A DNA stretch of 64,000 nt, taken from Pirellulales bacterium (GTDB lineage Bacteria; Planctomycetota; Planctomycetia; Pirellulales; DATAWG01). The first letter of the stretch is position 1. Each line of letters begins with the position of its first letter. A program made the translations under genes and the position numbers. Shown here one piece after another: positions 1,750-39,699 of the stretch. The stretch lies in assembly GCA_038210495.1 (NCBI GenBank), contig JBBQWR010000013.1, positions 15,310 to 79,309 of the forward strand. Direction: 5' to 3'. The notes under the pieces were generated by a model, which worked only from the letters and a program-made list of their open reading frames with translations, had not been told where the DNA came from and searched no databases.

Positions 1750-3497
1750 AGCTGAAACTCCTGGGTGGGCGGCAGAAGTGATTCGGTCGGCCCAAGCGGC
1801 GCCGGCTGAGATTGCGAGGGTATTTCAGGGCCAAATGGTTTCAGGCCAGCGTCGGCCGCCTCGCGAACCACGAGACTGCGATCCTCCAGGGCCTTCTCCA
1901 GCGCGGCTCGAGACCGGGGCGTGTTGCAAGCGCCCAGCGCCCGGGCGACCTCGGACCGAACCAAGTGATCTTCGTCGGCCAGGCGAGCGATCAGCGCCTC
2001 TTCGAGTTGCTCGGCGACATTCAGCGCGACTACGACTTTCACGGCCCGCAGCCTGCGGGTGCGCGATTTGGCGACAAGTTCTTGTCGCACGCCGTCCAAG
2101 GCTTCGAAATCGATTTTGCGAACCATCTCCCCCGTGGTGCGGCGAATATCATCGTCGAGGATATCGAACGACGCCAAGAATCGGCTGAACGTGAATTCGG
2201 CCAAATTCTCGCGAACGGCCCGCCGCACGATATCGTGTGGGCTGGCGACCATGTCGACCAAACGTCCCAGCACGCCGGGAATTCCTCGCGGCCGAAGTTG
2301 GCCGACGGCGTTGGCTTGCACTTGCGGATCGGGATCGTCGAGAGCCTTCAGAGCCAAGGCATTCGCCTCGGCGCCATTAAACTTCGCGAGCGCCGCCGAC
2401 GCCGCCCGCCGCCCTCCGACGCGGCCATGCAGGGTGAGGAATTCGATCACCGTGAAGACCGATTTGCGGGCCATGCCCGACCGAACGGCGAGTTGCACGG
2501 CGCCGAACTGCGCGTTGTCGTCCAACTCGCGCAGCAGCGAAAAGTCGCCTTGAAGCCACGGAACCGTATCGATCTTTTTGACATTCATCGCCACGTTGCC
2601 GGTCGGCTCATAGCCGATTTTGCGAACCAGACTTTCCACGAACTTGAGATCGCTCCGATGAGCCAAGAGCGTGAGCGACGACGAAGGAGCATGCGGATCG
2701 TCCAAGAAACTTAGCACCAACCGGAAGATTCCTGGGCGATGGCTATGCGTCAGCACTTCGACGATCGGACGATAAGATGAGTCGAGCGGGTCGGCCAAAA
2801 TCGTCTTAAGCGTCGCGTTGTCGCGGTGAACGAGCAGCAAAAAAGCCTCGATCACCGCCAGAATACGATGCTTGGCGAACCGCTTGACCGAGCCTTCAAG
2901 GCTCCCGATGACGTGTTGTCTGGCCAACTGCGGATCCCGGCGATTGCGGTAATCTCGCCGAGCCGCCAATTCTTCGTAGAGGAGCTCCGCCAACTGGAGG
3001 ACCGTCGCTGTCGCCATCTCGCGATTCGGGTTCGATTCGTCTTCAGCCGCGTTTATGAGCGCCGGCATCAAATCGTATTCGTGGAACCAGAGAATGGCCT
3101 GACAGCCGTTTTGGCACAGTTGCGGTTCGGCCGCGAGCACGGCGTCGCGCAGCGCGGCCGACATGCGGCCATGCCGTTGATCAATGATCGACCGCCAGCG
3201 CTCGTCGAACTGGTGCAGCCGGCGAACGATTTCCTTTTGGCCGGTCACGCTGTGTCGGTCCAGAATCGCCCGCAGGGCTTGTTCGCTAACCGACGCATGC
3301 GCGGAATCGAGCGCCGGGATGAGGAGCCCAATGGCGGCCTCATTTTTGGTCTTCGTCAACAGTCGAAATGTCGTGGCCAGACCTTGAGTCACAGCGATCG
3401 GTCGTCGGGGTTGATGATAGGTCGCACTCCTGGCGTGCTTCCTTTGCCCGGCCAATGGGCACGCCAGGACGCGGTAGCCAAATTTGCATCGTCTCAA
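1746..3497 (-). CDS. HEAT-repeat protein
   Basis: 583-aa ORF with repeated HEAT-like units, e.g. ALKALDDPDPQVQANAVGQL, ARLADEDHLVRSEVARALG and ALEDRSLVVREAAADAL. Confidence 0.7.
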   Translation of the reverse strand: MRRCKFGYRVLACPLAGQRKHARSATYHQPRRPIAVTQGLATTFRLLTKTKNEAAIGLLIPALDSAHASVSEQALRAILDRHSVTGQKEIVRRLHQFDERWRSIIDQRHGRMSAALRDAVLAAEPQLCQNGCQAILWFHEYDLMPALINAAEDESNPNREMATATVLQLAELLYEELAARRDYRNRRDPQLARQHVIGSLEGSVKRFAKHRILAVIEAFLLLVHRDNATLKTILADPLDSSYRPIVEVLTHSHRPGIFRLVLSFLDDPHAPSSSLTLLAHRSDLKFVESLVRKIGYEPTGNVAMNVKKIDTVPWLQGDFSLLRELDDNAQFGAVQLAVRSGMARKSVFTVIEFLTLHGRVGGRRAASAALAKFNGAEANALALKALDDPDPQVQANAVGQLRPRGIPGVLGRLVDMVASPHDIVRRAVRENLAEFTFSRFLASFDILDDDIRRTTGEMVRKIDFEALDGVRQELVAKSRTRRLRAVKVVVALNVAEQLEEALIARLADEDHLVRSEVARALGACNTPRSRAALEKALEDRSLVVREAADAGLKPFGPEIPSQSQPAPLGPTESLLPPTQEFQL

Positions 3498-28118: not shown

Positions 28119-28246
28119 GATGATTCGGGCTGTGTGGAAGGATTGCCCCCAGAGGCGATGCCTTGGCTTGGCAAGCTACATGCACAAGCGCGACAGTTAG
28201 CCCGGTTTACCGGCTGCTGGACGGAAAAACGCCGGAATTGAAAGTC

Positions 28247-29338
28247 ATGCAAGACAATCGGGCCAAAAAACGACCTTGTCCGACCGCGCTCGCCGCCACG
28301 CTGCTGCTGGCTTGCTGCATGGCCGGTTGCCAGGCGTTTACCACCCGAGCAAGACAGGAAGAAATCCCGATTCCCCCGCCGATTCACCACGACCATGCGC
28401 CGATCGAGAAGGACAAAGTCGCCCTGCCCACTTATCGTATTTCGGCCCCGGATATCTTGCTGATCGATGCACTTAAGATTGTGCCCAAGCCGCCGTTCAA
28501 AATCGCTTCGCTGGATCAATTGCAGATCAACGCATCGGGCACATTGGCCCAGCAACCGATCTTGGGCATTTACGCGGTCGAGCCGAGTGGCTCGATCGAC
28601 TTGGGCCCAGCTTACGGTCGTGTGTCCGTGGCCGGGCTGACGTTGGATGAGGCCACCGAGGCCGTAGCGAGCCAATTGAGTCGAGTCTTGCGACAGCCGC
28701 AGGTTTCACTCACATTGGCCCAATCCGGAGGCCAACAGCAAATCGCCGGAGAGCATTTGGTCGCGTCGGATGGCCGGATCAACCTCGGCACGTATGGCAA
28801 CGTCTACGTGGCCGGCATGACGGTCGAGGAAGCTCGCGACGCGATTCAAGCATTCCTCAGCAAGACGCTCGACAATCCGCGCGTGGCGGTCGATGTCGGT
28901 TCGTACAACAGCATGGTGTATTACATTATTACAGACGGCGCCGGCGTCGGTCAGAGCGTGTCGCGGTTTCCCGTCACGGGTAATGAAACGGTGCTCGATG
29001 CGCTAAGCAACGTCAACGGTTTATCGCAATTGGCGAGCAAGCACCATGTGTGGATCGCCCGCCCGGCGCCCCAAGAATTGGGCTGCGACCAGAGGCTGCG
29101 GGTAAACTGGGACGATATCACCAAGCACGCTAACACGAGCACGAATTATCAGGTTTTGCCGGGCGATCGAATCTTCATCGGGTCTGACCGGTTCTACGCC
29201 TTGGACAATACGATTTCCAAGATCACCGCGCCGTTTGAGCGAATCTTCGGTCTAGCGACGCTCGGAGTCCAAGTGATTTTCCGAACGCAGCACCCCAGTC
29301 AAGGTTTTAGCGGCGGTAACGGCGGCAGTGCCTTCTAG
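28247..29338 (+). CDS. polysaccharide export protein (Wza-like, Poly_export + SLBB), lipoprotein signal
   Basis: Internal ATG. MQDNRAKKRPCPTALAATLLLACCMAGCQ is a lipobox-like signal. Also PDILLIDALK…, …GRINLGTYGNVYVAGMTVEEARDAI… and LPGDRIFIG. Confidence 0.8.
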   Translation: MQDNRAKKRPCPTALAATLLLACCMAGCQAFTTRARQEEIPIPPPIHHDHAPIEKDKVALPTYRISAPDILLIDALKIVPKPPFKIASLDQLQINASGTLAQQPILGIYAVEPSGSIDLGPAYGRVSVAGLTLDEATEAVASQLSRVLRQPQVSLTLAQSGGQQQIAGEHLVASDGRINLGTYGNVYVAGMTVEEARDAIQAFLSKTLDNPRVAVDVGSYNSMVYYIITDGAGVGQSVSRFPVTGNETVLDALSNVNGLSQLASKHHVWIARPAPQELGCDQRLRVNWDDITKHANTSTNYQVLPGDRIFIGSDRFYALDNTISKITAPFERIFGLATLGVQVIFRTQHPSQGFSGGNGGSAF

Positions 29339-29462
29339 ACCAGTCGTACCATGTTCCAGGGGCGACAACGAAACTCCGCGGACTTATTTTGAACTGTTGG
29401 ATTTGCTCACCGGGTTTTGCCAACGAGCAAAACGGGTGAGCGGCAATACTTCGAGGCGATTC

Positions 29463-31694
29463 ATGTTGCGAAGAATTCAGGCTAAACGACAACTGCGCTG
29501 GGCCGCGGCGTTGAGCATGGCGCTCGGCTTCGGTGGCGCGCAAGCTCCCGCTGACGCCGGCGAAGGACAGGGTTGTCCCGGCGGAGTCTGTCCCGTGAAT
29601 TCCCGCTATTACGGCTACTTCCCCACCAAGTGGCGCCGGTGGCCGGGCACGGAACCGCAGCCCGAACCGCCACCGACTCGGCCCACGGACCCCAACGTTC
29701 CCACGGTCCAGTTGCCCAAGGCCACCGAAGAACTCGACAAGGGGAAGGAAGGCGCCGAGGGCTCGGCTAAATCTCCCTCCGCGACCGCGCCCCCTGCCGC
29801 CGAATCACCGGCCCAGGACATGAAGGGCCCACCCCCCGGCGGTCCGGCTCCCGGCGGCGCAGCGCCCGGGGCGTTCGAGCCGCTTCCGGATTTGATGAAT
29901 CAGCAGTTCACGGAATCAACGCCGCCATCGCATTCCCAATATTTCAGCAAACCTGCGTCTCTCGAATTTGCCGAAAGCAAAAACCGGCGGACAGCAGACG
30001 CAAGCCGTGCCGATGAATTCAATCGGGCCGGAAACGATTTGGCCACGCCGCGAACGATCTATGCATTGCCCACGTCGAGCGAAGTGAAGTTTTCGCAGGC
30101 GACGACTCCGCAACGAGTCGGCCGGACGGCGGATTCGACCACCAACGCCGGCCCGAACTGGCAACAATCAAACGAGCCGACCCTTTCACCCCGCGACGGC
30201 GCGAGAGGAACGACCGACAAGTCTTCGTTCGATTGGCAGACTCCCGCGGCAGACTCGCCAGTTCCGCGATCGAGCTTCGCTTCGGCCAAGCCGAGCTTGG
30301 TGGATCGCTTGTCGGCTGCGAGCAGAACGGACGTGACCGGGCTCCGGCCGGCGGGCAATCGACATCTGCCCTTTATGCCCTCGACCGCCACAAATACCTC
30401 ACCTTCAAACAACGTCCCGGCAGCCGAGCCCGCGCTGACGAGAGCGACCCCGTCCCGCCGCTGGGACAGCCCGCCACCATCGCTCGCCTCGTCCACGTCC
30501 GTGGAACTTGGCGCGGCAGGCCTACAGACGCCGAACGAAGCGGGCGCCCAGCAACTGGCGCCGCCGACTCGCGTGTCCGGAATCGATGTTCCGCAGGCCC
30601 CAGGCGCCGGCCAAAAGATGCAGTACAAGGCGATCGACGAGGCAGGACCGCACGCTGTCGCCAATATCAATCCGCTGGAGATCAGTAGTTCTTTGTTGGA
30701 CGAACGGCCAGCGATTCAACCGAAAGCTGCGGCTACATCGCGATTTACGGCCGCGAACGACGCGGCTAGTGCGCCGGCGGCGAAGTTAACAGAGGATCGT
30801 GGATTTTCCGGAAGCCGACTCGCCGTCGACCGGATTGCGGACCGCGGACCAGCGCAACTGCCGCCGATCGGCCGAAACATCGCGGCCACCCAACAGGCGC
30901 CTGTGAATACATTCTCGGGCAACCCTACGCCGCGGTTCAGCGACGATCGACTCTCGATAAGCGTTGCGAATGCACGCCTGGCCCTTGGCGCCGGCGCGTC
31001 GGTTTCAAAACCGGCGCCGAGCAACTTCCCACCGCTAACATTGGCGGCCGCGCCGACACCACTTCCGTTTGCCGCTGGCGCAACGCGATCTGCTGCCGGC
31101 GCCGACTCTCGGGGATTACCGCAAACTCAGAGTGGCTTGACAAAATTTGATTCTTACGTCGCGCCGCCGCTCAATTCGCAGCGAGGCAAAACCCAATTTG
31201 ACATTGCGTCGCCGCCGACCGGCGAATCGAGAACGACATCGTCGATATCGATTGACGCGCCGACCGATTCTTGGAAAGCTCCCGAAACAAACCTCGCGGC
31301 TCGCCTTCGCAGCGCCTCGCCCACCGTGGTCGCGGCGAAACAGAAGCCAGTTGCCGCGTCTCAGGTTTTGTCGTTCCCGAGCCCGAATCCCAAGGCCAGT
31401 TTATCGGCTGCGGCGACGCAAGCTTCGACATCTTCTCCGGCCGAAGCCGCCACCGTGTCCGACGAAAGTCCGAACCCCAGCGTTACTCCGGCAACCTATC
31501 GGGTTCCGCTCGCCTCTTCGCCAACGACATTGGCAGCGTCCTCCAAGGGTTTTCGCGATAACAACCCGCTGCGAGCCGGCGCCGGTAAACCGAGGGAGCT
31601 CAATCGCAACGAATTCTCGGCGGCCGATTGGTCTGAAATGCCCTCCGCCCCGGCGTCGCCCGCCGGAATCGGTAATCCTCTGCGCGGCAACTAA
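29463..31694 (+). CDS. secreted low-complexity Pro/Ser/Ala-rich protein
   Basis: Internal ATG giving MLRRIQAKRQLRWAAALSMALGFGGAQAPADA (signal). The rest is compositionally biased with no recognisable domain. It lies immediately downstream of the Wza-like gene. Confidence 0.45.
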   Translation: MLRRIQAKRQLRWAAALSMALGFGGAQAPADAGEGQGCPGGVCPVNSRYYGYFPTKWRRWPGTEPQPEPPPTRPTDPNVPTVQLPKATEELDKGKEGAEGSAKSPSATAPPAAESPAQDMKGPPPGGPAPGGAAPGAFEPLPDLMNQQFTESTPPSHSQYFSKPASLEFAESKNRRTADASRADEFNRAGNDLATPRTIYALPTSSEVKFSQATTPQRVGRTADSTTNAGPNWQQSNEPTLSPRDGARGTTDKSSFDWQTPAADSPVPRSSFASAKPSLVDRLSAASRTDVTGLRPAGNRHLPFMPSTATNTSPSNNVPAAEPALTRATPSRRWDSPPPSLASSTSVELGAAGLQTPNEAGAQQLAPPTRVSGIDVPQAPGAGQKMQYKAIDEAGPHAVANINPLEISSSLLDERPAIQPKAAATSRFTAANDAASAPAAKLTEDRGFSGSRLAVDRIADRGPAQLPPIGRNIAATQQAPVNTFSGNPTPRFSDDRLSISVANARLALGAGASVSKPAPSNFPPLTLAAAPTPLPFAAGATRSAAGADSRGLPQTQSGLTKFDSYVAPPLNSQRGKTQFDIASPPTGESRTTSSISIDAPTDSWKAPETNLAARLRSASPTVVAAKQKPVAASQVLSFPSPNPKASLSAAATQASTSSPAEAATVSDESPNPSVTPATYRVPLASSPTTLAASSKGFRDNNPLRAGAGKPRELNRNEFSAADWSEMPSAPASPAGIGNPLRGN

Positions 31695-31778: not shown

Positions 31779-34505
31779 TCACTTCGGAGCCGCCTCTGCG
31801 TCGTCAACCTCCGTCGGAATCGCCGGCGGTGAGGCGAGAAATACGGGGCAATGGGCGTGCTCCAGCAGATAATCGAGCCAAGGCGCCGTCGGATTCCCCG
31901 TGTCGTCCGCCCATCGCGTGGGCATCGAGGCGATGATCAGATTGTACTGCCCCTCGCGGGCGCACCGAACGATCTCCGGCGCCGTGTCGCCGCCGATCGT
32001 GAGGACATTCATTTCGCGACCCAACTGCGAAGCCCGCTTTCGGTCGAAGCCGAGTGCTTGTTGAATTTCGTCGATAGACGCTTGCTTGTCGGGCGCGACA
32101 ATCAAATCCAGGTCGACTTTAGGATCGAGCATCGTCAGCACGGATTGAAACAGATCGTGGCTCGCCGCGCTGCCGTTGTAAACGAGCAGCACGCGACTGA
32201 CGCCGACGCCCGCGGCGCGGAGTTCCGCGACGTTCCGTGCCTGCCGCTCGCTGATCTTGGGAATTCGATTGCCTCCGGCCAAGTCGAGATGCACTTCGCG
32301 GTCGCGGCTCACGATCCGCACCGTGAGCGGTCGAGGCACGTCGGCGTTCACGTTGAACCAGTAGAGCGCCACCTGGTCGAGTTGTTCGTCGGCCGTGTTC
32401 TTGTTCGACACGCCGATCACCAGTTCTTGGGCGCCCAAAGCCTTGGCTGTGTTGATCACGGCGAACAACGGATTGTTCGTGGGCACAATGAGCGGGATGA
32501 CCTCCTTGCCGGATTTTTCCGCGCGATCGACGACGGCCGTCATCAGCTTGGTATCGTATTTGTCCAAATCTTGCGGAACGCGCTCGGTACCGACGCCCGG
32601 CTCGAACTTGGCGGTCATGACCACGACCGACGTGGTTTTGGGGTCGGATTCGAGGAGCGCCTTTTCGAGCATGAACAGGTTTTGCGGGGAGCGAATAGCG
32701 ACCAATTTGACAAAGGGCTTGTCGATGCGCAGTTTCTCGCGAGAGATTTCGTCGGCCGTCGCCTGGTTGAACTGCTCCTGATGATCGTGATGGGCTCCCT
32801 TGAGACGCCGTTCATGAGCCTTCTCGCTGACGACGAATATCATCAAAAACCCAGCGGTAAATCCAAGGCCCCAGGTCGTCGCCGTTTCCTTGGTGAGCAA
32901 ATTGGTGATCGCGGCCGCCGCCAGGACCAGGAAAATCAGAATCAGACCGACGGGAATTTCCAACTTGCCGATCCGAACATTGAGCGGCACCTTATAGTCT
33001 CGATGCGTGTGCTGCTTAAATCGCAGCACGACCATGGCCAGCGCTTTGAATACGAAGCTCCACACGACGCCGAAGGCATAGGCTTCGCCGAGCACGAGCG
33101 TGTCGCCCCGGCTGGCGACGATCGTGAAAAGTTGAAAGATGACAACCAGCGCGAGGATTCGGTAAGTCGTGCCGTATTTTCGATGCGGCTTGAGAAACCA
33201 ATCCGGCATGACGCCGTCCTCGGCGACGCGGTTCAAGACCCCGTTCGATCCGATGATCGCCGTATTGACGGCGCCCGATAGAATTAGAAATCCAATGAAC
33301 ACGACAAACGCCTGGAGCGCCAAGAGTGCCCAATTCGGACCAATCACGTTCATCGCCAAACCGCCGATGAGATTGTCGCGGTAGAGCGACATTCGCTGGT
33401 CGTCGGGAATCAGCAGCACCGCCAAAAAACTGATGCCGGCCGTCAACACCATGCTATAGACAAAGACCACGAAGGCGGCCTTCTTGAAATTCAACATCTT
33501 CGGCGCCTCGACTTCGCGATAAACCTGCGCGAGCGTCTCCTCGCCACTCATCGCCAGGATCGAGTGCCCAAACGCCACGGCGATCCCCAATAGCCCGACG
33601 AGACTCAGCCAATCTCGTTTCGGCGTCGAGGGGGCGGACAACTCGCGAAGTCGTTCGTCGACCCCCGTGTTCTCCAGATAACCGAGCGGACTTTCTTCCT
33701 TGGGCGGATCGGTCGAAAAATTCGGATGCGGTCGAAGGTCCGGCAGCATGGGCACGTGGTTGGTTTTGCCGTCTTTGCTCTTCGCGGCGACCAGGTCGGT
33801 GAACGTCGTGCCTGGCTGACCGATCAAATCGCGGCGCTCCCAGGCGTTGGACGCCAGCGTGGCCCCACACCACACGAGAATCACGACCGCCATGACGGTG
33901 GTGGCCTTCATGATCTTCACGGCCTTGTCGCTCGATTCGTGGATGCCTTTGATGTTCTCCCGAAAGAAATAAAGCGTGGCGCCACAGGCGATGACCACGG
34001 CGCCCCCGTTTGTGATACTGTCGCGCGCCTCCTTGGCGACCGCGAAACCGGAGTGGCCGAAAAGATAATGCTCGGCGTAAACGAACAGGTCGATTCCCAG
34101 GCCCATGATGTACTGGCCCGCCGAGACGCCGCTGATGGGGCCGGTGAGGATGTAGTCGAACATCAGGGCCGAGACGGAGAGTTTTGCCAGCCAGCCTCCC
34201 ATGGCTTCTTTTACCACGCGATACACGCCGCCGCGGACGAACAGTGAGCAGCTTTCGATGTACACGCTGCGCACAGCGTAGCTAAACATCATTACGGCCA
34301 AGATGAACCACGGCGCCGCGGCCCCGATCGATTGCTCGACGATCCCGCCGATGTAATAAGCCGTGCTGGCCAGATCGCACAGCACCACCGCGGCGGTCCG
34401 CCAGTAGGAGATGAACTTGAACATCACGCTGTTTACGACGATCACGTTCGCAGCGCGCGTGTTACCGCTAGAACTGGCCGGGCCAGCGCCCTCAGGAGAC
34501 GACAT
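31779..34505 (-). CDS. APC-superfamily permease fused to C-terminal tandem universal-stress-protein (USP) domains, KimA/YdaO-like; paralog 1
   Basis: Start set at MSSPEGAGP by homology with paralog 2; the track's GTG start 30 nt upstream lies in the conserved leader. About 12 TM segments. GGVYRVVKEAMGG…FDYILTGPISGVSAG resembles the KimA GGAYIVSKENLG…VDYILTVAVSISAG region (recalled from memory). Confidence 0.8.
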   Translation of the reverse strand: MSSPEGAGPASSSGNTRAANVIVVNSVMFKFISYWRTAAVVLCDLASTAYYIGGIVEQSIGAAAPWFILAVMMFSYAVRSVYIESCSLFVRGGVYRVVKEAMGGWLAKLSVSALMFDYILTGPISGVSAGQYIMGLGIDLFVYAEHYLFGHSGFAVAKEARDSITNGGAVVIACGATLYFFRENIKGIHESSDKAVKIMKATTVMAVVILVWCGATLASNAWERRDLIGQPGTTFTDLVAAKSKDGKTNHVPMLPDLRPHPNFSTDPPKEESPLGYLENTGVDERLRELSAPSTPKRDWLSLVGLLGIAVAFGHSILAMSGEETLAQVYREVEAPKMLNFKKAAFVVFVYSMVLTAGISFLAVLLIPDDQRMSLYRDNLIGGLAMNVIGPNWALLALQAFVVFIGFLILSGAVNTAIIGSNGVLNRVAEDGVMPDWFLKPHRKYGTTYRILALVVIFQLFTIVASRGDTLVLGEAYAFGVVWSFVFKALAMVVLRFKQHTHRDYKVPLNVRIGKLEIPVGLILIFLVLAAAAITNLLTKETATTWGLGFTAGFLMIFVVSEKAHERRLKGAHHDHQEQFNQATADEISREKLRIDKPFVKLVAIRSPQNLFMLEKALLESDPKTTSVVVMTAKFEPGVGTERVPQDLDKYDTKLMTAVVDRAEKSGKEVIPLIVPTNNPLFAVINTAKALGAQELVIGVSNKNTADEQLDQVALYWFNVNADVPRPLTVRIVSRDREVHLDLAGGNRIPKISERQARNVAELRAAGVGVSRVLLVYNGSAASHDLFQSVLTMLDPKVDLDLIVAPDKQASIDEIQQALGFDRKRASQLGREMNVLTIGGDTAPEIVRCAREGQYNLIIASMPTRWADDTGNPTAPWLDYLLEHAHCPVFLASPPAIPTEVDDAEAAPK

Positions 34506-34605
34506 GGGATTTCGATTCGGGACAGCAGGTCCCACTCGGATTCAGACACGACGCCCGTGCGACAGCAGTGCCCTTTTCAATTTCGGCGCCCAGACACTTG
34601 CTGGG

Positions 34606-34748
34606 GGCCTGCCGACGAGGTTAGCTGACGGGCTAGAGCTGGAAAGTACTCTGGTCCTACGATGGACCTTCGCCCCGGGGCCAAATACTCGCTCGAAAGC
34701 AAGCAATCAACCCGCTGGTTCCCCCGTTTCCCCGCCTCAGCGAGGAAT
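34606..34748 (-). promoter_or_regulatory. ydaO-yuaA (c-di-AMP) riboswitch-like aptamer, copy 1
   Basis: - strand RNA: CGCUGAGGCGGGGAAACGGGGGAACCAGCGGGUUGAUU … GGGGCGAAGGUCC … CUAGCCCGUCAGCUAACCUCGUCGGCAGG. The 3' block is nearly identical to the conserved ACCCGUCAGCUAACCUCGUAAGCG of the B. subtilis ydaO leader (recalled from memory). Confidence 0.7.
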
Positions 34749-35174
34749 TAGGCTGCACGAGAGGTTAATACTACCATCGGGAAAAAAGTTTGCAATCGGG
34801 GCGCCGCGCGCGGGCTATCTGAACTGGCGTCCAACTTCACGCAAGGGCCAGCCGACTGCGACCTAGGCCCTCCGCTCGTCGGCGGGCGGCGACCCGACCA
34901 CGACCCAACTGCCGAATGACAAGGACTGTGCGATCCACAAGAACACGTCAAGCACCAACGTCTTCCTGGCCTACAATGACGGCGGCACGATCAAGATGGT
35001 GCAATTGTCGTGACGACGCGGGACAATGGAATCCCTAACAACTCTGGCGAACCAGGGGGGCAGACCCATTTTGCTCGCGGCATCACAAAATTGGGTCAAA
35101 CCCCGGCCGGCTTGCGTTTTTGGACGAGGCGGCGTTGAACTTTGCTTCGTCATTCCGCTTCACGATTCACCCAC

Positions 35175-37898
35175 TTACGGCCCCGCCTTCGGCTCTATGG
35201 CGTCACCTTCGTCGACTTCCATCGGAATCGCCGGCGGCGAAGCTGGGAATACCGTGCAATGGGCGTGGTCGATCACAAAATCGATCCAAGGCGCCGTCGA
35301 CTCGTCGTCTCCTTCGGACAACCGCTCGTGCTTCGCGAGAACAATCAGATTGTAGTGGCCGTCGCGGGCCCGCTTGACGATCTCTGGCCCAATGTCGTCG
35401 GTCAGCGTGACGACGCTCATTTCACGGCCAAGTTGCAATGCCCGCTGGCGATCGACTTCGACCGCATGCTGGACTTCGCCGGGCGCCAAATGAGGCTCCG
35501 GAACAATGAGCAGGTCCAATTCGACTTTGGGATCCAGCATCGTCAAGACGGTTTGAAACAAATCGTGGCTGGCCGCGCTACCGGTATGAACCGACAGCAC
35601 GCGGCTGACGCCGACTCCGGCCGCGCGCAATTCGGCGACGCTTCGCGCCTGCCGCTCGCTGATTTTGGGAATCCGGTTGCCGCCGGCCAAATCGAGATGC
35701 ACTTCGCGATCGCGGCTGACGATCCGCACCGTTAGGGGCTTCGGCTGATCGGCGTTGACGTTGAACCAATAGAACGCGACTTGATCGAGTTGCTCGTCGG
35801 CCGTGTTCTTGTTCGAGACCCCGATCACCAGTTCTTGGACATCCAGCGCCTTGGCCGTGTTGATCACCGCGAAAAGCGGGTTGTTCGTCGGCACGATCAG
35901 CGGAACGACTTCCTTGCCGGACTTCTCGGCCCGCTGCACGACGGCGGTCATCAGCTTCGCGTCGTATTTGTCGAGGTCGCCCTGGGGCCGCTCGGTGACA
36001 ACGCCCGGCTCGATCTTGGCCGTCATGACGACAATCTCGGTCGTGGTGGGATCGGATTCCGCCAAGGCCTTTTCCAGCATGAACAGATTTTGCGGCGAGC
36101 GGATCGCCACGAGCTTCGTGTATTTCTTCTTGAGCCCCAGCTTAGCGCGACTGATTTCGCTGGCCGTCTCTTGGTTGAACTGCTCTTGGTGATCGTGATG
36201 AACGCCCTTGAGCCGGCGCAAGTGGGCCTTTTCGCTGGCGATGAAGATCGTCAGAAAACCGGCCGTGAATCCGAGTCCCCAAATCGTGGCGGTTTCCTTG
36301 GTCAGCAGATTCGTGATGGCCGCCAACAGCAGAATGACGAACACCAGGATCAACCCGACGGGAATCTCGATCTTTCCGATGCGGAAATTGAGCGGCACCT
36401 TGTATTCGCGAGTCGAAGTATCCCTAAACCGCAGCACGACCATCGCGAGCGAGTTGAACACGAAGCTCCATACTACGCCGAACGCATACGCCTCGCCGAG
36501 CACGAGCGTATCGCCGCCGCTGGCGATGATCGTCACCAATTGAAAGGCGACGACCAAAATAAGAATTCGGTAGCTCGTGCCGTATTTGCGATGCGGCTTG
36601 AGAAACCAATCGGGCATGACGCCGTCTTCGGCCACGCGGTTCAGCACGCCGTTGGAGCCGATGATTGCCGTATTAACCGCTCCGGAAAGAATCAAGAAGC
36701 CAATGAACACGACAAAGGCTTGCAGAATCAAGCGAGCCCACATCGGCCCGACCATGTTCATCGCCAAGCCGCCGATGAGATTGTCGCGATAGATCGGCAT
36801 CCGCTGATCCTCGGGTATCAGCAGCACGGCCAAGAAGCTGATGCCCACGGTCAGCACGATGCTATAGACGAAAACGACGAAGGCCGCTTTCTTGAAATTC
36901 TTCATCTTTGGCGCCTCGACCTCGCGAAAAACCTGCGCCAAGGTCTCTTCGCCGCTCATCGCCAAGATCGAATGGCCAAACGCCACGATGATGCCGAAGA
37001 CTCCGATCCAACTGAGCCAGTCCGACTTCGGCGTGGACGGGTCGGACAACTGGCTCAGTTCCTTGTCGATCGGCTTGCCCTCCAAAAATCCGAGTGGGCT
37101 TTCTTCCTTGCCGGTCGTCGTGTTCAGATGCGGTCGCAGGTCGGGAAGCACGGGCAACTTATTGCGAACGATGACTTCCTTGCCGTCCTGCAACACGACG
37201 TTTCCGTGCTGATCCTTGAGCTTGTAAGTCGCGACGCCTTGCACGGCCAACGTGACCGCACACCAGGTCATGATCACGACCGCCATGATCGTGGTGGCCT
37301 TCATGATCTTTATGGCCTTGTCGCTCGATTCGTGGATACCCTTGATGTTTTCCCAGAAGAAGTACAGCGTCGCGGCGCAGGCGATGAAAACGGCGCCGTA
37401 ATTCGTTAGCGTCTCGCGCGTCGTTTTGAGGACGGTAAACGCGGGGTGATTCAAGAGATACCGCTCGGCGTACTCGAACGAATCGATCCCCAGACCCATG
37501 ATGTACTGGCCGGCGGAGACGCCGCTGATCGGTCCGGTCAGAATGTAATCGAACATCAGTGCCGAGACGGAGAGCTTGGCGAGCAGGCCGCCCATCCCGG
37601 CCTTCACGGCCCGGTAAACGCCCCCACGGACGAACATCGAGCAGCTTTCGATGTACACATTCCGCACGGCGTAGCTGAAGATCATCACGGCCAGGATGAA
37701 CCAAGGCGCCGCGGCGCCGATCGACTGCTCGACGATCCCGCCGATGTAATAGGCCGTGCTGGCCAGATCGCACAGCACCACGGCGGCCGTCCGCCAGTAG
37801 GAAATGAACTTGAACATCACGCTGTTTACGACAATTACGTTCGCAGCGCGCGAGCTACCGCCCGTGCTGGCCGGGCCAGCGTCCTCAGGAGACGACAT
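35175..37898 (-). CDS. APC-superfamily permease fused to C-terminal tandem USP domains, KimA/YdaO-like; paralog 2
   Basis: 907 aa and collinear with paralog 1. The N-terminal ~140 aa are almost identical (…VIVVNSVMFKFISYWRTAAVVLCDLASTAYYIGGIVEQSIGAAAPWFILAVM…). Confidence 0.8.
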   Translation of the reverse strand: MSSPEDAGPASTGGSSRAANVIVVNSVMFKFISYWRTAAVVLCDLASTAYYIGGIVEQSIGAAAPWFILAVMIFSYAVRNVYIESCSMFVRGGVYRAVKAGMGGLLAKLSVSALMFDYILTGPISGVSAGQYIMGLGIDSFEYAERYLLNHPAFTVLKTTRETLTNYGAVFIACAATLYFFWENIKGIHESSDKAIKIMKATTIMAVVIMTWCAVTLAVQGVATYKLKDQHGNVVLQDGKEVIVRNKLPVLPDLRPHLNTTTGKEESPLGFLEGKPIDKELSQLSDPSTPKSDWLSWIGVFGIIVAFGHSILAMSGEETLAQVFREVEAPKMKNFKKAAFVVFVYSIVLTVGISFLAVLLIPEDQRMPIYRDNLIGGLAMNMVGPMWARLILQAFVVFIGFLILSGAVNTAIIGSNGVLNRVAEDGVMPDWFLKPHRKYGTSYRILILVVAFQLVTIIASGGDTLVLGEAYAFGVVWSFVFNSLAMVVLRFRDTSTREYKVPLNFRIGKIEIPVGLILVFVILLLAAITNLLTKETATIWGLGFTAGFLTIFIASEKAHLRRLKGVHHDHQEQFNQETASEISRAKLGLKKKYTKLVAIRSPQNLFMLEKALAESDPTTTEIVVMTAKIEPGVVTERPQGDLDKYDAKLMTAVVQRAEKSGKEVVPLIVPTNNPLFAVINTAKALDVQELVIGVSNKNTADEQLDQVAFYWFNVNADQPKPLTVRIVSRDREVHLDLAGGNRIPKISERQARSVAELRAAGVGVSRVLSVHTGSAASHDLFQTVLTMLDPKVELDLLIVPEPHLAPGEVQHAVEVDRQRALQLGREMSVVTLTDDIGPEIVKRARDGHYNLIVLAKHERLSEGDDESTAPWIDFVIDHAHCTVFPASPPAIPMEVDEGDAIEPKAGP

Positions 37899-37999
37899 AG
37901 GATTTCGATTCGGGACAGCAGGTCCCCCTCGGATTCAGACACGACGCCCGTGCGACAGCAGTGCCCTTTTCAATTTCGGCGCCCAAACACCCTGCTGGG

Positions 38000-38140
38000 G
38001 CCTGCCGACGGGGTTATCTGACGGGCTGGAGTGGGAAAAGCACACTGGTCCCACGACGGACCTTCGCCCGCGTGGTCAAATGCCTTGCCAAGCAAGCGTT
38101 CGACCCGCAAGTTCCCTCGCTTCCTCGCCTCAGCGAAGAA
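38000..38140 (-). promoter_or_regulatory. ydaO-yuaA (c-di-AMP) riboswitch-like aptamer, copy 2
   Basis: - strand RNA: CGCUGAGGCGAGGAAGCGAGGGAACUUGCGGGUCGAAC … GCGGGCGAAGGUCC … CCAGCCCGUCAGAUAACCCCGUCGGCAGG. Same architecture as copy 1, with substitutions in the peripheral stems. Confidence 0.65.
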
Positions 38141-38418
38141 TTAGGCTGCACGAGTGGTTTATCGTAGCCACGGCCGCCCTGAATGCAAGTCGCGATGCGG
38201 CAGTACCTTGTCACTTGGCAGGACGACAGTCATAATAAATTGGGCAATTTGGGCAGTTGCTACCATGCCTCTTTCACCATCCGTTGGCGGAGCCGATTCC
38301 CAAACGCTGTTGTAGCCGCTGGCCCCATTTGGTAATCCAACGGACCCTTGTTGTTCACCCTGTTGCCAAAAACCTTTCAGCAGCCGGGGACGTTGAACCT
38401 CGTGAAAAAGCGGCGCGC

Positions 38419-39699
38419 ATGAGATCTCGCGTGGTTGTCACCGGCTTGGGATGCATTACGTCGCTCGGTTCGAGCTCTCAACAGCTTTGGAATCGACTGC
38501 TGCGGGGGGAGTCGGGCATTGGCCGGGCGACCCTGTTCGACACCACGAATTTCCCCACCCGCATCGCCGCTGAAGTCCGCGATTGGTCGATCGCCGACGC
38601 TGGTGAAGACCCCCGCCGCTGGAGCCATTCCCCGCGGCAGACGCTCTTTGCCGTCGCAGCGGCCAAACAGGCCTTCGCCGACGCGGGGCTCGGCGATGTC
38701 GCGCGCGACCCCAGTCGGCTCGGAGTCTATCTAGGCGCCGGCGACGTCTATCAGGATTTTGGGCAGTTCGTCAAAATTCTCGAGCGCTCGATGCGCCACG
38801 GCGAGATCGATTTGGGCGAGTATGCGAAGGCCGCATTTGAACTTCTCAACCCGGCCGACGAGTTGGAGCGGGAACCCCACATGGTCGCGAGCCATGTGGC
38901 GAGCCTGTTCGACGCACAAGGCCCCAACGTCAGCTCGTTCACGGCTTGCGCCGCCAGCAGCCAAGCGATCGGTGAATCGGCCGAGACGATTCGCCGGGGC
39001 GAGGCCGACATCATGATCGCCGGCGGCGCGCACAGCTTGATCCATACCTTCGGCGTCACGGGCCTAAGCCTGCTGACCGCGCTCAGCCGGCACAACGACG
39101 AGCCTTGTCGGGCGTCGCGCCCGTTCGATCGAGACCGCGATGGTTTTGTGCTGGGCGAAGGGGCCGGTATCTTGATTCTCGAAGGGCTCGAGCACGCTCG
39201 GGCCCGCGGGGCTCAGATTTACGGCGAGATCAACGGCTATGGCGCCAGCGCCGACGCCTACCGCGTGACCGATATTCATCCCGAGGGGCGCGGCGCGGTC
39301 GCTTGCATGCAGCGAGCCCTGGACGATGCCCGGCTCAACCCTGCGGACATCGACTATATCAACGCCCACGGCACGAGCACGCTGCTGAACGATAAAGTGG
39401 AAACGATCGCCGTCAAGCAAGTCTTTGGCAAGGCGGCTTATCGCACGCCGATTTCCAGCACCAAGAGCATGACGGGCCATTTGCTGGCCGCCGCCGGAGT
39501 GACCGAGTTGATCATCTGTCTGATGGCGCTGCGGGACGGAGCGCTTCCGCCGACGATCAACTACGAAACGCCCGACCACGAGTGCGATCTGGACTATGTG
39601 CCGAACGAGGCCCGCGATGCCCGCTGCCGGCACATTTTAAGCAACAGCTTCGGCTTCGGCGGCCAAAACGTGTCGCTCGTCGTCTCCCGGGCTGCGTAG
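38419..39699 (+). CDS. fabF: beta-ketoacyl-ACP synthase II family protein
   Basis: Internal ATG (MRSRVVVTGLGCITSLG). Active-site Cys region FTACAASSQAIG, YINAHGTST, KSMTGHLLAAAG and NSFGFGGQN. Confidence 0.8.
   Translation: MRSRVVVTGLGCITSLGSSSQQLWNRLLRGESGIGRATLFDTTNFPTRIAAEVRDWSIADAGEDPRRWSHSPRQTLFAVAAAKQAFADAGLGDVARDPSRLGVYLGAGDVYQDFGQFVKILERSMRHGEIDLGEYAKAAFELLNPADELEREPHMVASHVASLFDAQGPNVSSFTACAASSQAIGESAETIRRGEADIMIAGGAHSLIHTFGVTGLSLLTALSRHNDEPCRASRPFDRDRDGFVLGEGAGILILEGLEHARARGAQIYGEINGYGASADAYRVTDIHPEGRGAVACMQRALDDARLNPADIDYINAHGTSTLLNDKVETIAVKQVFGKAAYRTPISSTKSMTGHLLAAAGVTELIICLMALRDGALPPTINYETPDHECDLDYVPNEARDARCRHILSNSFGFGGQNVSLVVSRAA

Follow-up and report, generated by a model that had tools for sequence, protein, structure and literature searches.

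The leader of a gene annotated as an amino acid permease in a planctomycete genome raises two questions, namely whether its RNA is a cyclic di-AMP (c-di-AMP) riboswitch of the ydaO/yuaA type and what the protein under its control may transport. The gene (31779-34505, minus strand) lies in a window of 64,000 nucleotides, by which we mean the whole stretch of DNA analysed here, from contig JBBQWR010000013.1 of a Pirellulales bacterium (assembly GCA_038210495.1). A first-pass annotation, made from the letters alone, had proposed such a riboswitch in the leader and had described the protein as a KimA-like permease with two universal stress protein (USP) domains. In our assessment, the leader RNA is very probably a functional member of the c-di-AMP class (RF00379). 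The element is a further example of a known regulator class and not a new kind of element.

Identity and extent of the aptamer

Scanning of the whole window with cmscan against Rfam 15 at gathering thresholds returned only two matches, both to RF00379. The match in the leader (34594-34764, minus strand) spans model positions 1-134 of 134 and scores 58.5 bits against a gathering score of 38, with an E value of 5.5e-11, and is thus far beyond chance; the central proposal of the first-pass annotation was hereby upheld. Its 3' end lies 88 nt upstream of the permease ATG on the same strand. The consensus blocks of the family are recognisable in the cmscan alignment, and the three RNA blocks quoted in the annotation were all recovered from the minus strand, namely CGCUGAGGCGGGGAAACGGGGGAACCAGCGGGUUGAUU (34741-34704), GGGGCGAAGGUCC (34676-34664) and CUAGCCCGUCAGCUAACCUCGUCGGCAGG (34635-34607). 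This aptamer departs from none of the columns for which 23 other elements show a conservation of at least 90%. The interval originally given for the element (34506-34748) was correct at its 3' end, which reaches the ATG at 34505, but too short at its 5' end, where it omits the 5' strand of P1 (34754-34751) and a conserved CGUGCA flank.

Conservation was analyzed in 80 loci from species-representative genomes of Planctomycetota, Binatia, "delta-proteobacteria" and Acidobacteriota. Of 17 planctomycete orthologous loci, 9 have a riboswitch detected by Rfam directly upstream and in the same orientation, with scores of 40-73 bits. A covariance model built from the Rfam-matched orthologous leaders and run on 81 sources yielded 25 real elements. 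Elements before orthologous genes were found in about 19 other Planctomycetota loci and in a few loci of Acidobacteriota (L063, L072 and L060) and Elusimicrobiota (L036); in L060, the element stands before the second of two permeases. Over the 25 elements, 91.9% of the helix cells are paired, compared with 76.4% in shuffled controls and 40-49% with slid partners, and double-sided changes occur in 20 of the 32 pairs. Covariation in orthologous leaders, to which the annotation had pointed as a check, is present in every variable helix, and P2, P6 and P7 vary freely yet stay paired, while a 2-bp helix at columns 61-62 (54.5% paired) is unsupported. Because the alignment was made to fit the structure, the pairing figure is biased upwards; the case is nonetheless clear from the controls with slid partners and from the variety of pair types in P2, P6 and P7. 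The earlier comment that Planctomycetota rarely figure in discussions of the motif agrees with our reading, as no paper joining "c-di-AMP riboswitch" and "Planctomycetes" was found in the literature searched. Verrucomicrobia are named among the phyla with predicted c-di-AMP riboswitches (PMC6488665).

The core shares with the crystallised ydaO aptamer (4QLM/4QLN; PMC5393176) the blocks CG(G)GGGGA.CC, GGGGCGAA and AGCCCGUCAGCUAACCUCG and a pseudoknot joining the P7 loop to the 3' tail. In the 4QLM construct (sequence in PMC5393176), the pseudoknot strand follows 2 nt after P1, with CUCCUUCG pairing with CGAAGGAG, whereas the tail in the window lies 29 nt further 3', behind an inserted hairpin, with CUUUCCA facing UGAAAAG. 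This G+C-rich hairpin of 25 nt is contained neither in the Rfam consensus nor in the crystallised construct. At the same position, a hairpin folds in 20 of 20 leaders examined, with sequences that are all different (z of -1.5 to -6.2), and the order of hairpin and UUGAAAG is common to the 20 leaders; the element of L035 is without the insertion. Loop and tail are complementary at homologous positions in the 20 leaders, with 95.5% of cells paired compared with 25-68% for slid partners. Compensatory changes are present in L083 and L084, in which CUUUUUA faces UGAAAAG or UAAAAAG, and the pseudoknot of L018 is formed by a very different complementary pair, AUCCUGG/CUAGGAU. Judged from these alignments, the Rfam 3' boundary at 34594 is an artefact, because the model aligned its 3' tail onto the inserted hairpin, and the element is longer than the Rfam match, because the pseudoknot 3' strand (34579-34573) sits behind that hairpin. 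Rfam match boundaries will thus under-call elements of this kind, in which the pseudoknot strand is displaced by an inserted hairpin.

A putative sigma-70-type promoter precedes the aptamer, with a predicted transcript start at about 34763-34759, a few nucleotides 5' of P1. Only 8 of the 12 consensus bases are kept, and a promoter scan did not report it. Its assignment follows from positional homology, as orthologous leaders carry CTTG..N16-18..TATAGT about 10 nt 5' of P1, at the same distance as in the window, and the scan calls those of L010 and L018. All features are collected in Table 1.

Table 1. Features of the riboswitch-permease locus (coordinates in the window)
Feature	Position	Strand	Basis or remark
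c-di-AMP aptamer core, P1 5' strand to P1 3' strand	34610..34754	-	RF00379 match, mapped pairs, covariation over 25 elements
P1	34754-34751 with 34613-34610	-	
P2	34747-34728	-	
P3	34727-34722 with 34620-34615	-	
Variable hairpin	34715-34678	-	
GGG/CCC helix	GGG 34675-34673 with CCC 34632-34630	-	
P6	34668-34653	-	
P7	34651-34636	-	loop ACUUUCCA, 34647-34640
Inserted hairpin, GGCCCCCAG-CAAGUGU-CUGGGCGCC	34585..34609	-	between P1 3' strand and pseudoknot strand
Pseudoknot 3' strand, UUGAAAAG	34573..34580	-	pairs with P7 loop CUUUCCA, 34646-34640
Platform hairpin PH1, GGGCAC U GC U GUC GCACG GGC GU C GUGUCU	34544..34573	-	RNAalifold consensus; begins at last base of pseudoknot strand
Platform hairpin PH2, GGGAC-CUGCU-GUCCC	34519..34533	-	14 nt 5' of ATG
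Putative sigma-70-type promoter	34768..34795	-	-35 TTGCAA 34795-34790, 16-nt spacer, -10 TAGTAT 34773-34768
Regulated gene, 908-aa APC-fold permease, candidate KimA-like K+/H+ symporter	31779..34505	-	ATG 34505-34503; two C-terminal USP-like alpha/beta domains
Second, weaker c-di-AMP aptamer	37988..38157	-	RF00379, 39.8 bits (gathering score 38), E 9e-6; before the paralog gene
Tandem paralog gene, 907 aa	35175-37898	-	own aptamer in leader

The permease encoded downstream

The 908-aa permease matches Pfam AA_permease_2 with 150.8 bits and Usp (PF00582) with 20.3 bits, the latter short of the cut-off of 24. The protein belongs to a very large family, with at least 8000 homologues at E <= 1e-10, many of which carry a precomputed PF00582 match. 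NCBIfam gave no match for either of the two paralogs in the window, and PDB sequence searches with the protein and with the family profile matched no transporter; the profile weakly matches the USP proteins MJ0577 and TeaD (E 0.04-0.07). In the AlphaFold model (mean pLDDT 69), a LeuT/APC fold with 12 transmembrane helices is followed by a cytosolic part of two alpha/beta domains. The two USP domains of the first-pass annotation thus find partial support in this model and in the weak matches to MJ0577 and TeaD, but remain below the Pfam threshold for Usp.

Foldseek searches with the whole length returned cation-chloride cotransporters and KimA as the best matches. The cotransporters (NCC, KCC and NKCC; E of about 1e-14 to 1e-15) align over near full length and likewise combine an APC-fold membrane domain with a large C-terminal cytosolic domain, but identity is 10-13%, the TM-score is about 0.3 and no Pfam SLC12 match was obtained; the resemblance is one of architecture, not of membership. 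KimA structures were matched with E values of 6e-14 to 7e-12 and 15-17% identity, the highest identity among the best matches. Alignment of the family with KimA using hhalign, for which the KimA query sequence was checked to be identical to 6S3K, gave an E value of 1e-4 and 26% identity over 372 columns.

In KimA, the residues D36, Y43, D117, T121, S125, T230, E233 and Y377 are linked to K+ binding, gating, proton coupling and trans-inhibition (PMC6994465). The corresponding residues of the permease are D44, Y50/Y51, D117, T121, S125, S320, E323 and Y476, and all eight aligned positions of the K+/H+ site are invariant in 17 family members. The proposed resemblance to KimA accordingly holds for the K+/H+ residues, while it is a distant one over the sequence as a whole, and by these alignments we consider the permease a distant KimA relative. 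With KimA (6S3K, 8B70), a K+/H+ symporter of the KUP family, it shares the LeuT/APC fold, the K+/H+ site residues and, after TM12, a cytosolic domain of a nucleotide-binding (HUP-class) type. The two proteins differ in size and in their cytosolic parts: KimA of Bacillus subtilis has 607 aa and a single PPAT-like domain, which binds c-di-AMP (PMC10284832), whereas the window protein carries a tandem USP-like pair in its 908 aa, with a membrane part of about 26% identity to that of KimA.

The USP domain of Staphylococcus aureus KdpD is a c-di-AMP receptor (PMC4686210) and, like the domains predicted here, a USP-type domain on a K+ uptake system. Residues 606-634 in the first USP-like domain (USP1) read S606-P-Q-X21-M-T-A-K-F and partly resemble the KdpD motif SXS-X20-FTAXY. 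The TA pair is present in 96 of 120 homologues. In contrast to KdpD, the second Ser and the Tyr that is essential for binding are not conserved in the window family, with Tyr found at this position in 6 of 96 homologues. The ATP motif G-X2-G-X9-G(S/T) was found in neither USP-like domain. In an Isosphaeraceae locus (L033), a riboswitch precedes a stand-alone USP gene (1898-2910, plus strand; 46.7 bits to Pfam Usp), and the permease gene comes after it; this suggests that the USP module can be supplied as a separate protein.

Proposed mode of control and alternative explanations

Two further hairpins, PH1 and PH2, occupy the region between the aptamer and the start codon. For nearly all of some 30 short leaders, folding predicts a hairpin at the PH1 position, usually of the form GGGC..CGUC..loop..GACG..GCCC; the short leaders came in part from 36 additional metagenome contigs retrieved with a pattern from the aptamer 3' end. 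One compensatory change, from G-C to A-U, was found by RNAalifold in L081. The segment GCACUGCUGUCGCACGGGCGUYGUG (34547-34571, within PH1) is almost invariant in relatives whose proteins are just 73-80% identical, and the PH2 arms GGGAC/GUCCC keep their sequence across leaders that are otherwise unalignable. Sequence kept beyond the needs of pairing in the PH1 segment and the PH2 arms points to some constraint on both. The motif CUGCUGUC is present in PH1 and in PH2. A candidate P0 helix between GUGC in the 5' flank and GCAC past the pseudoknot strand is perfect in 13 of 19 leaders and shows one compensatory change, and fails in L008, L027 and L043. A leader peptide starting from UUG or AUG in the tail was rejected, as the tail of L081 and L084 contains no start codon and the reading frame is a different one in canonical UUGAAAGGG leaders.

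Without exception, the class members characterised so far act as OFF switches on K+ uptake or related genes, as described for kimA and ktrAB (PMC10284832) and for kdp of Bacillus thuringiensis (PMC6488665), and for this reason we infer OFF logic for the window leader. At high c-di-AMP levels, two ligand molecules would lock P1, P3 and the pseudoknot, the locked aptamer would lower transporter expression, and K+ uptake would be cut when the cell signals sufficiency of K+ or turgor. PH1 is the probable link from aptamer to output. The founding riboswitch of the class, in the B. subtilis kimA (ydaO) leader, likewise belongs to RF00379, lies in the 5' leader of an APC-fold K+/H+ symporter (a candidate one in the window) and has the logic expected here, in that high c-di-AMP means less K+ uptake (PMC10284832). 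The window RNA differs from that leader by the 25-nt hairpin inserted after P1 and before the pseudoknot strand, by PH1 behind it, and by the lack of a U-tract terminator. The riboswitch of B. thuringiensis kdpFABC (PMC6488665) also combines a c-di-AMP aptamer with a K+ uptake system and is OFF by experiment, but it acts through a canonical intrinsic terminator of hairpin and U-tract, which was not found in the window leader.

Several results weigh against a working c-di-AMP riboswitch that controls a KimA-like transporter. Neither a terminator-like site nor a hairpin followed by a U-tract was found in the leader, no intrinsic terminator was found in the window and no consistent one in orthologous long leaders. 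Three models of the output found no support as general rules, the alternative pairings being tested over 30-37 leaders against shuffled controls. In a two-state thermodynamic model, locking of the aptamer and the pseudoknot had no consistent effect on AUG accessibility (0.35 to 0.31 in win1, 0.57 to 0.55 in win2). Pairing of the opened PH1 3' arm with the ribosome-binding and AUG region, as an anti-Shine-Dalgarno element, looked attractive in L001, L008 and L011 and, through GGGCGUCGUG with CAUGUCGUCU, in the window leader, but shuffled arms gave equal duplex energies (mean z -0.04, n=30). Mimicry of the P3 strand by PH1 gave a mean z of about 0 and was significant in L112, L115 and L117 only. 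Within the aptamer, the pseudoknot strands 34579-34573 and 34646-34640 form six pairs and one C.A mismatch, and P1 consists of three G-C pairs and an A.A mismatch, nothing more. No DGA...RHR motif of a diadenylate cyclase (DAC) was found in the 64-kb window, nor in the fetched relative loci; DAC-domain proteins are on record for the cultured Planctomycetales Planctomicrobium, Isosphaera and Rhodopirellula (PMC6741144). On the side of the protein, the hhalign probability for KimA is 58%, a marginal similarity, the register at D44 is ambiguous by one residue, and Asp435 takes the place of KimA R337, a residue of the TM8-9 loop which contacts c-di-AMP. As the leader contains no hairpin with a U-tract behind it, its output is more likely to be exerted on the initiation of translation or through Rho-dependent termination than through intrinsic termination.

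These observations were set against four other explanations. That a G+C-rich leader resembles the model by chance, for which its G+C content of 0.61 and nothing further speaks, is refuted by the E value of the match, the conserved place before orthologous genes and the covariation, and the probability left to it is practically nil. A decaying relic without regulation, with the gene expressed constitutively from its promoter, would fit the mismatch in the pseudoknot and the eroded look of the upstream paralog's copy, which has six deviations and, at 39.8 bits, scores barely above the gathering score. We consider this extremely unlikely, as the copy before 31779-34505 is intact at all conserved positions and scores within the orthologue range of 53-73 bits, and cross-lineage covariation of the helices requires continued selection. 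It is also very unlikely that the fold now senses another ligand, such as an adenine nucleotide or dinucleotide, or works with a changed logic, with the lineage-specific additions marking a functional variant. Retention of the inserted hairpin and PH1 in about 20-35 leaders, the position of that hairpin outside the Rfam consensus and the crystal construct, the very short P1 (3 bp) and the fruitless search for a standard expression platform in the leader would agree with such a variant, but all highly conserved core nucleotides of the class are kept in the window copy, the additions are peripheral and lie outside P1, and a KimA-like transporter is the archetypal gene context of c-di-AMP.

The fourth explanation accepts the riboswitch and concerns the substrate, in that the permease may import an amino acid or a compatible solute instead of K+. 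The Pfam label AA_permease_2 and the Foldseek search with the membrane domain alone, in which amino-acid transporters have the top TM-scores (TMt 0.65-0.74), speak for such a substrate, and amino-acid and osmolyte transporters are also part of the c-di-AMP regulon (PMC7266159). The label "amino acid permease" is, however, uninformative, because the only Pfam match of KimA itself is AA_permease_2; furthermore, all eight K+/H+ residues of KimA are kept and invariant, and CDLASTAYY in the first transmembrane helix (TM1) resembles SDALSSVAY of KimA. Amino-acid transporters of the APC fold have a glycine-rich unwound motif, which was not noticed in the permease, no test for it having been made. On balance, import of an amino acid or compatible solute appears unlikely. 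Likewise, we give a low probability to the most far-reaching proposal, according to which the APC-USP-USP permeases of Planctomycetota and Acidobacteriota would form a widespread KimA-like branch of K+ importers under double control by c-di-AMP, through the extended riboswitch and through the USP pair, as in KdpD and KimA. The riboswitch itself, as a member of the c-di-AMP class, we continue to regard as very probable.

The tandem copy and the wider family

The second RF00379 match in the window precedes the tandem paralog gene. The two permeases are about 78% identical, and the 907-aa paralog matches AA_permease_2 with 170 bits and, weakly, Usp with 20 bits (cut-off 24). An alignment of the two leaders extends from the aptamer start as far as the ATG. 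The second copy deviates at six positions with a conservation of 90% or more elsewhere (38117 G>A, 38110 C>U, 38109 A>U, 38070 G>C, 38041 A>G and 38017 C>A), while its pseudoknot is intact, with an extra U in the loop matched by an extra A in the tail. Under the far-reaching proposal given above, drift of the upstream aptamer at these six positions could mean that the transporters differ in the c-di-AMP level to which they respond, or that one of them has escaped control.

In L083 and L084, a single riboswitch serves two tandem genes. Both paralogs of the window are closer to the riboswitch-bearing first gene of these pairs than to the second, and since there is one riboswitch per pair in those loci, an independent duplication seems to have produced the arrangement in the window, with promoter, riboswitch and gene copied as one unit. 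The upstream copy encodes the more diverged protein. Between 34316-34614 and 37709-38007, DNA identity is 93-97% in most 60-nt windows (85% in one), compared with 45-92% elsewhere. The tract takes in the expression platform together with some 190 nt from the start of the coding sequence; it suggests that platform and initial codons were subject to gene conversion or are under strong constraint.

Divergently from the permease pair, a beta-ketoacyl-ACP synthase gene is encoded at 38257-39699 (plus strand), and the fatty-acid synthesis genes fabF, acpP, fabG, fabD and rpmF flank the orthologous loci L083 and L084, which indicates a syntenic neighbourhood. On the other side, an open reading frame of about 790-800 aa (29328-31694, plus strand), without a Pfam match at E<=1e-5, is convergent with the permease gene, and a Poly_export (polysaccharide export) gene at 28163-29338 lies just before it.

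The same extended riboswitch, with inserted hairpin and PH1, was also seen before genes for SPFH/Band-7 membrane proteins of about 750-780 aa on metagenome contigs, namely L091 (4123-6453, minus strand), L099 (356-2608, minus strand) and L117 (5787-8060, plus strand), and probably also L105, L108 and L112. No description of a link between this riboswitch and SPFH/Band-7 genes was found in the literature, in which no search was aimed at that association.

Taken together, the locus represents a known riboswitch class with some lineage-specific peripheral architecture, joined to an interesting candidate transporter. Our understanding of the riboswitch class is unchanged by it; its value lies in annotation and in a lead for transporter biology. 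Riboswitch-level control of K+ uptake by c-di-AMP would be extended to the Planctomycetota, a phylum for which no discussion of it was found in the literature searched, and a functional lead would be gained for a very large family whose sole annotation is "amino acid permease / universal stress protein".

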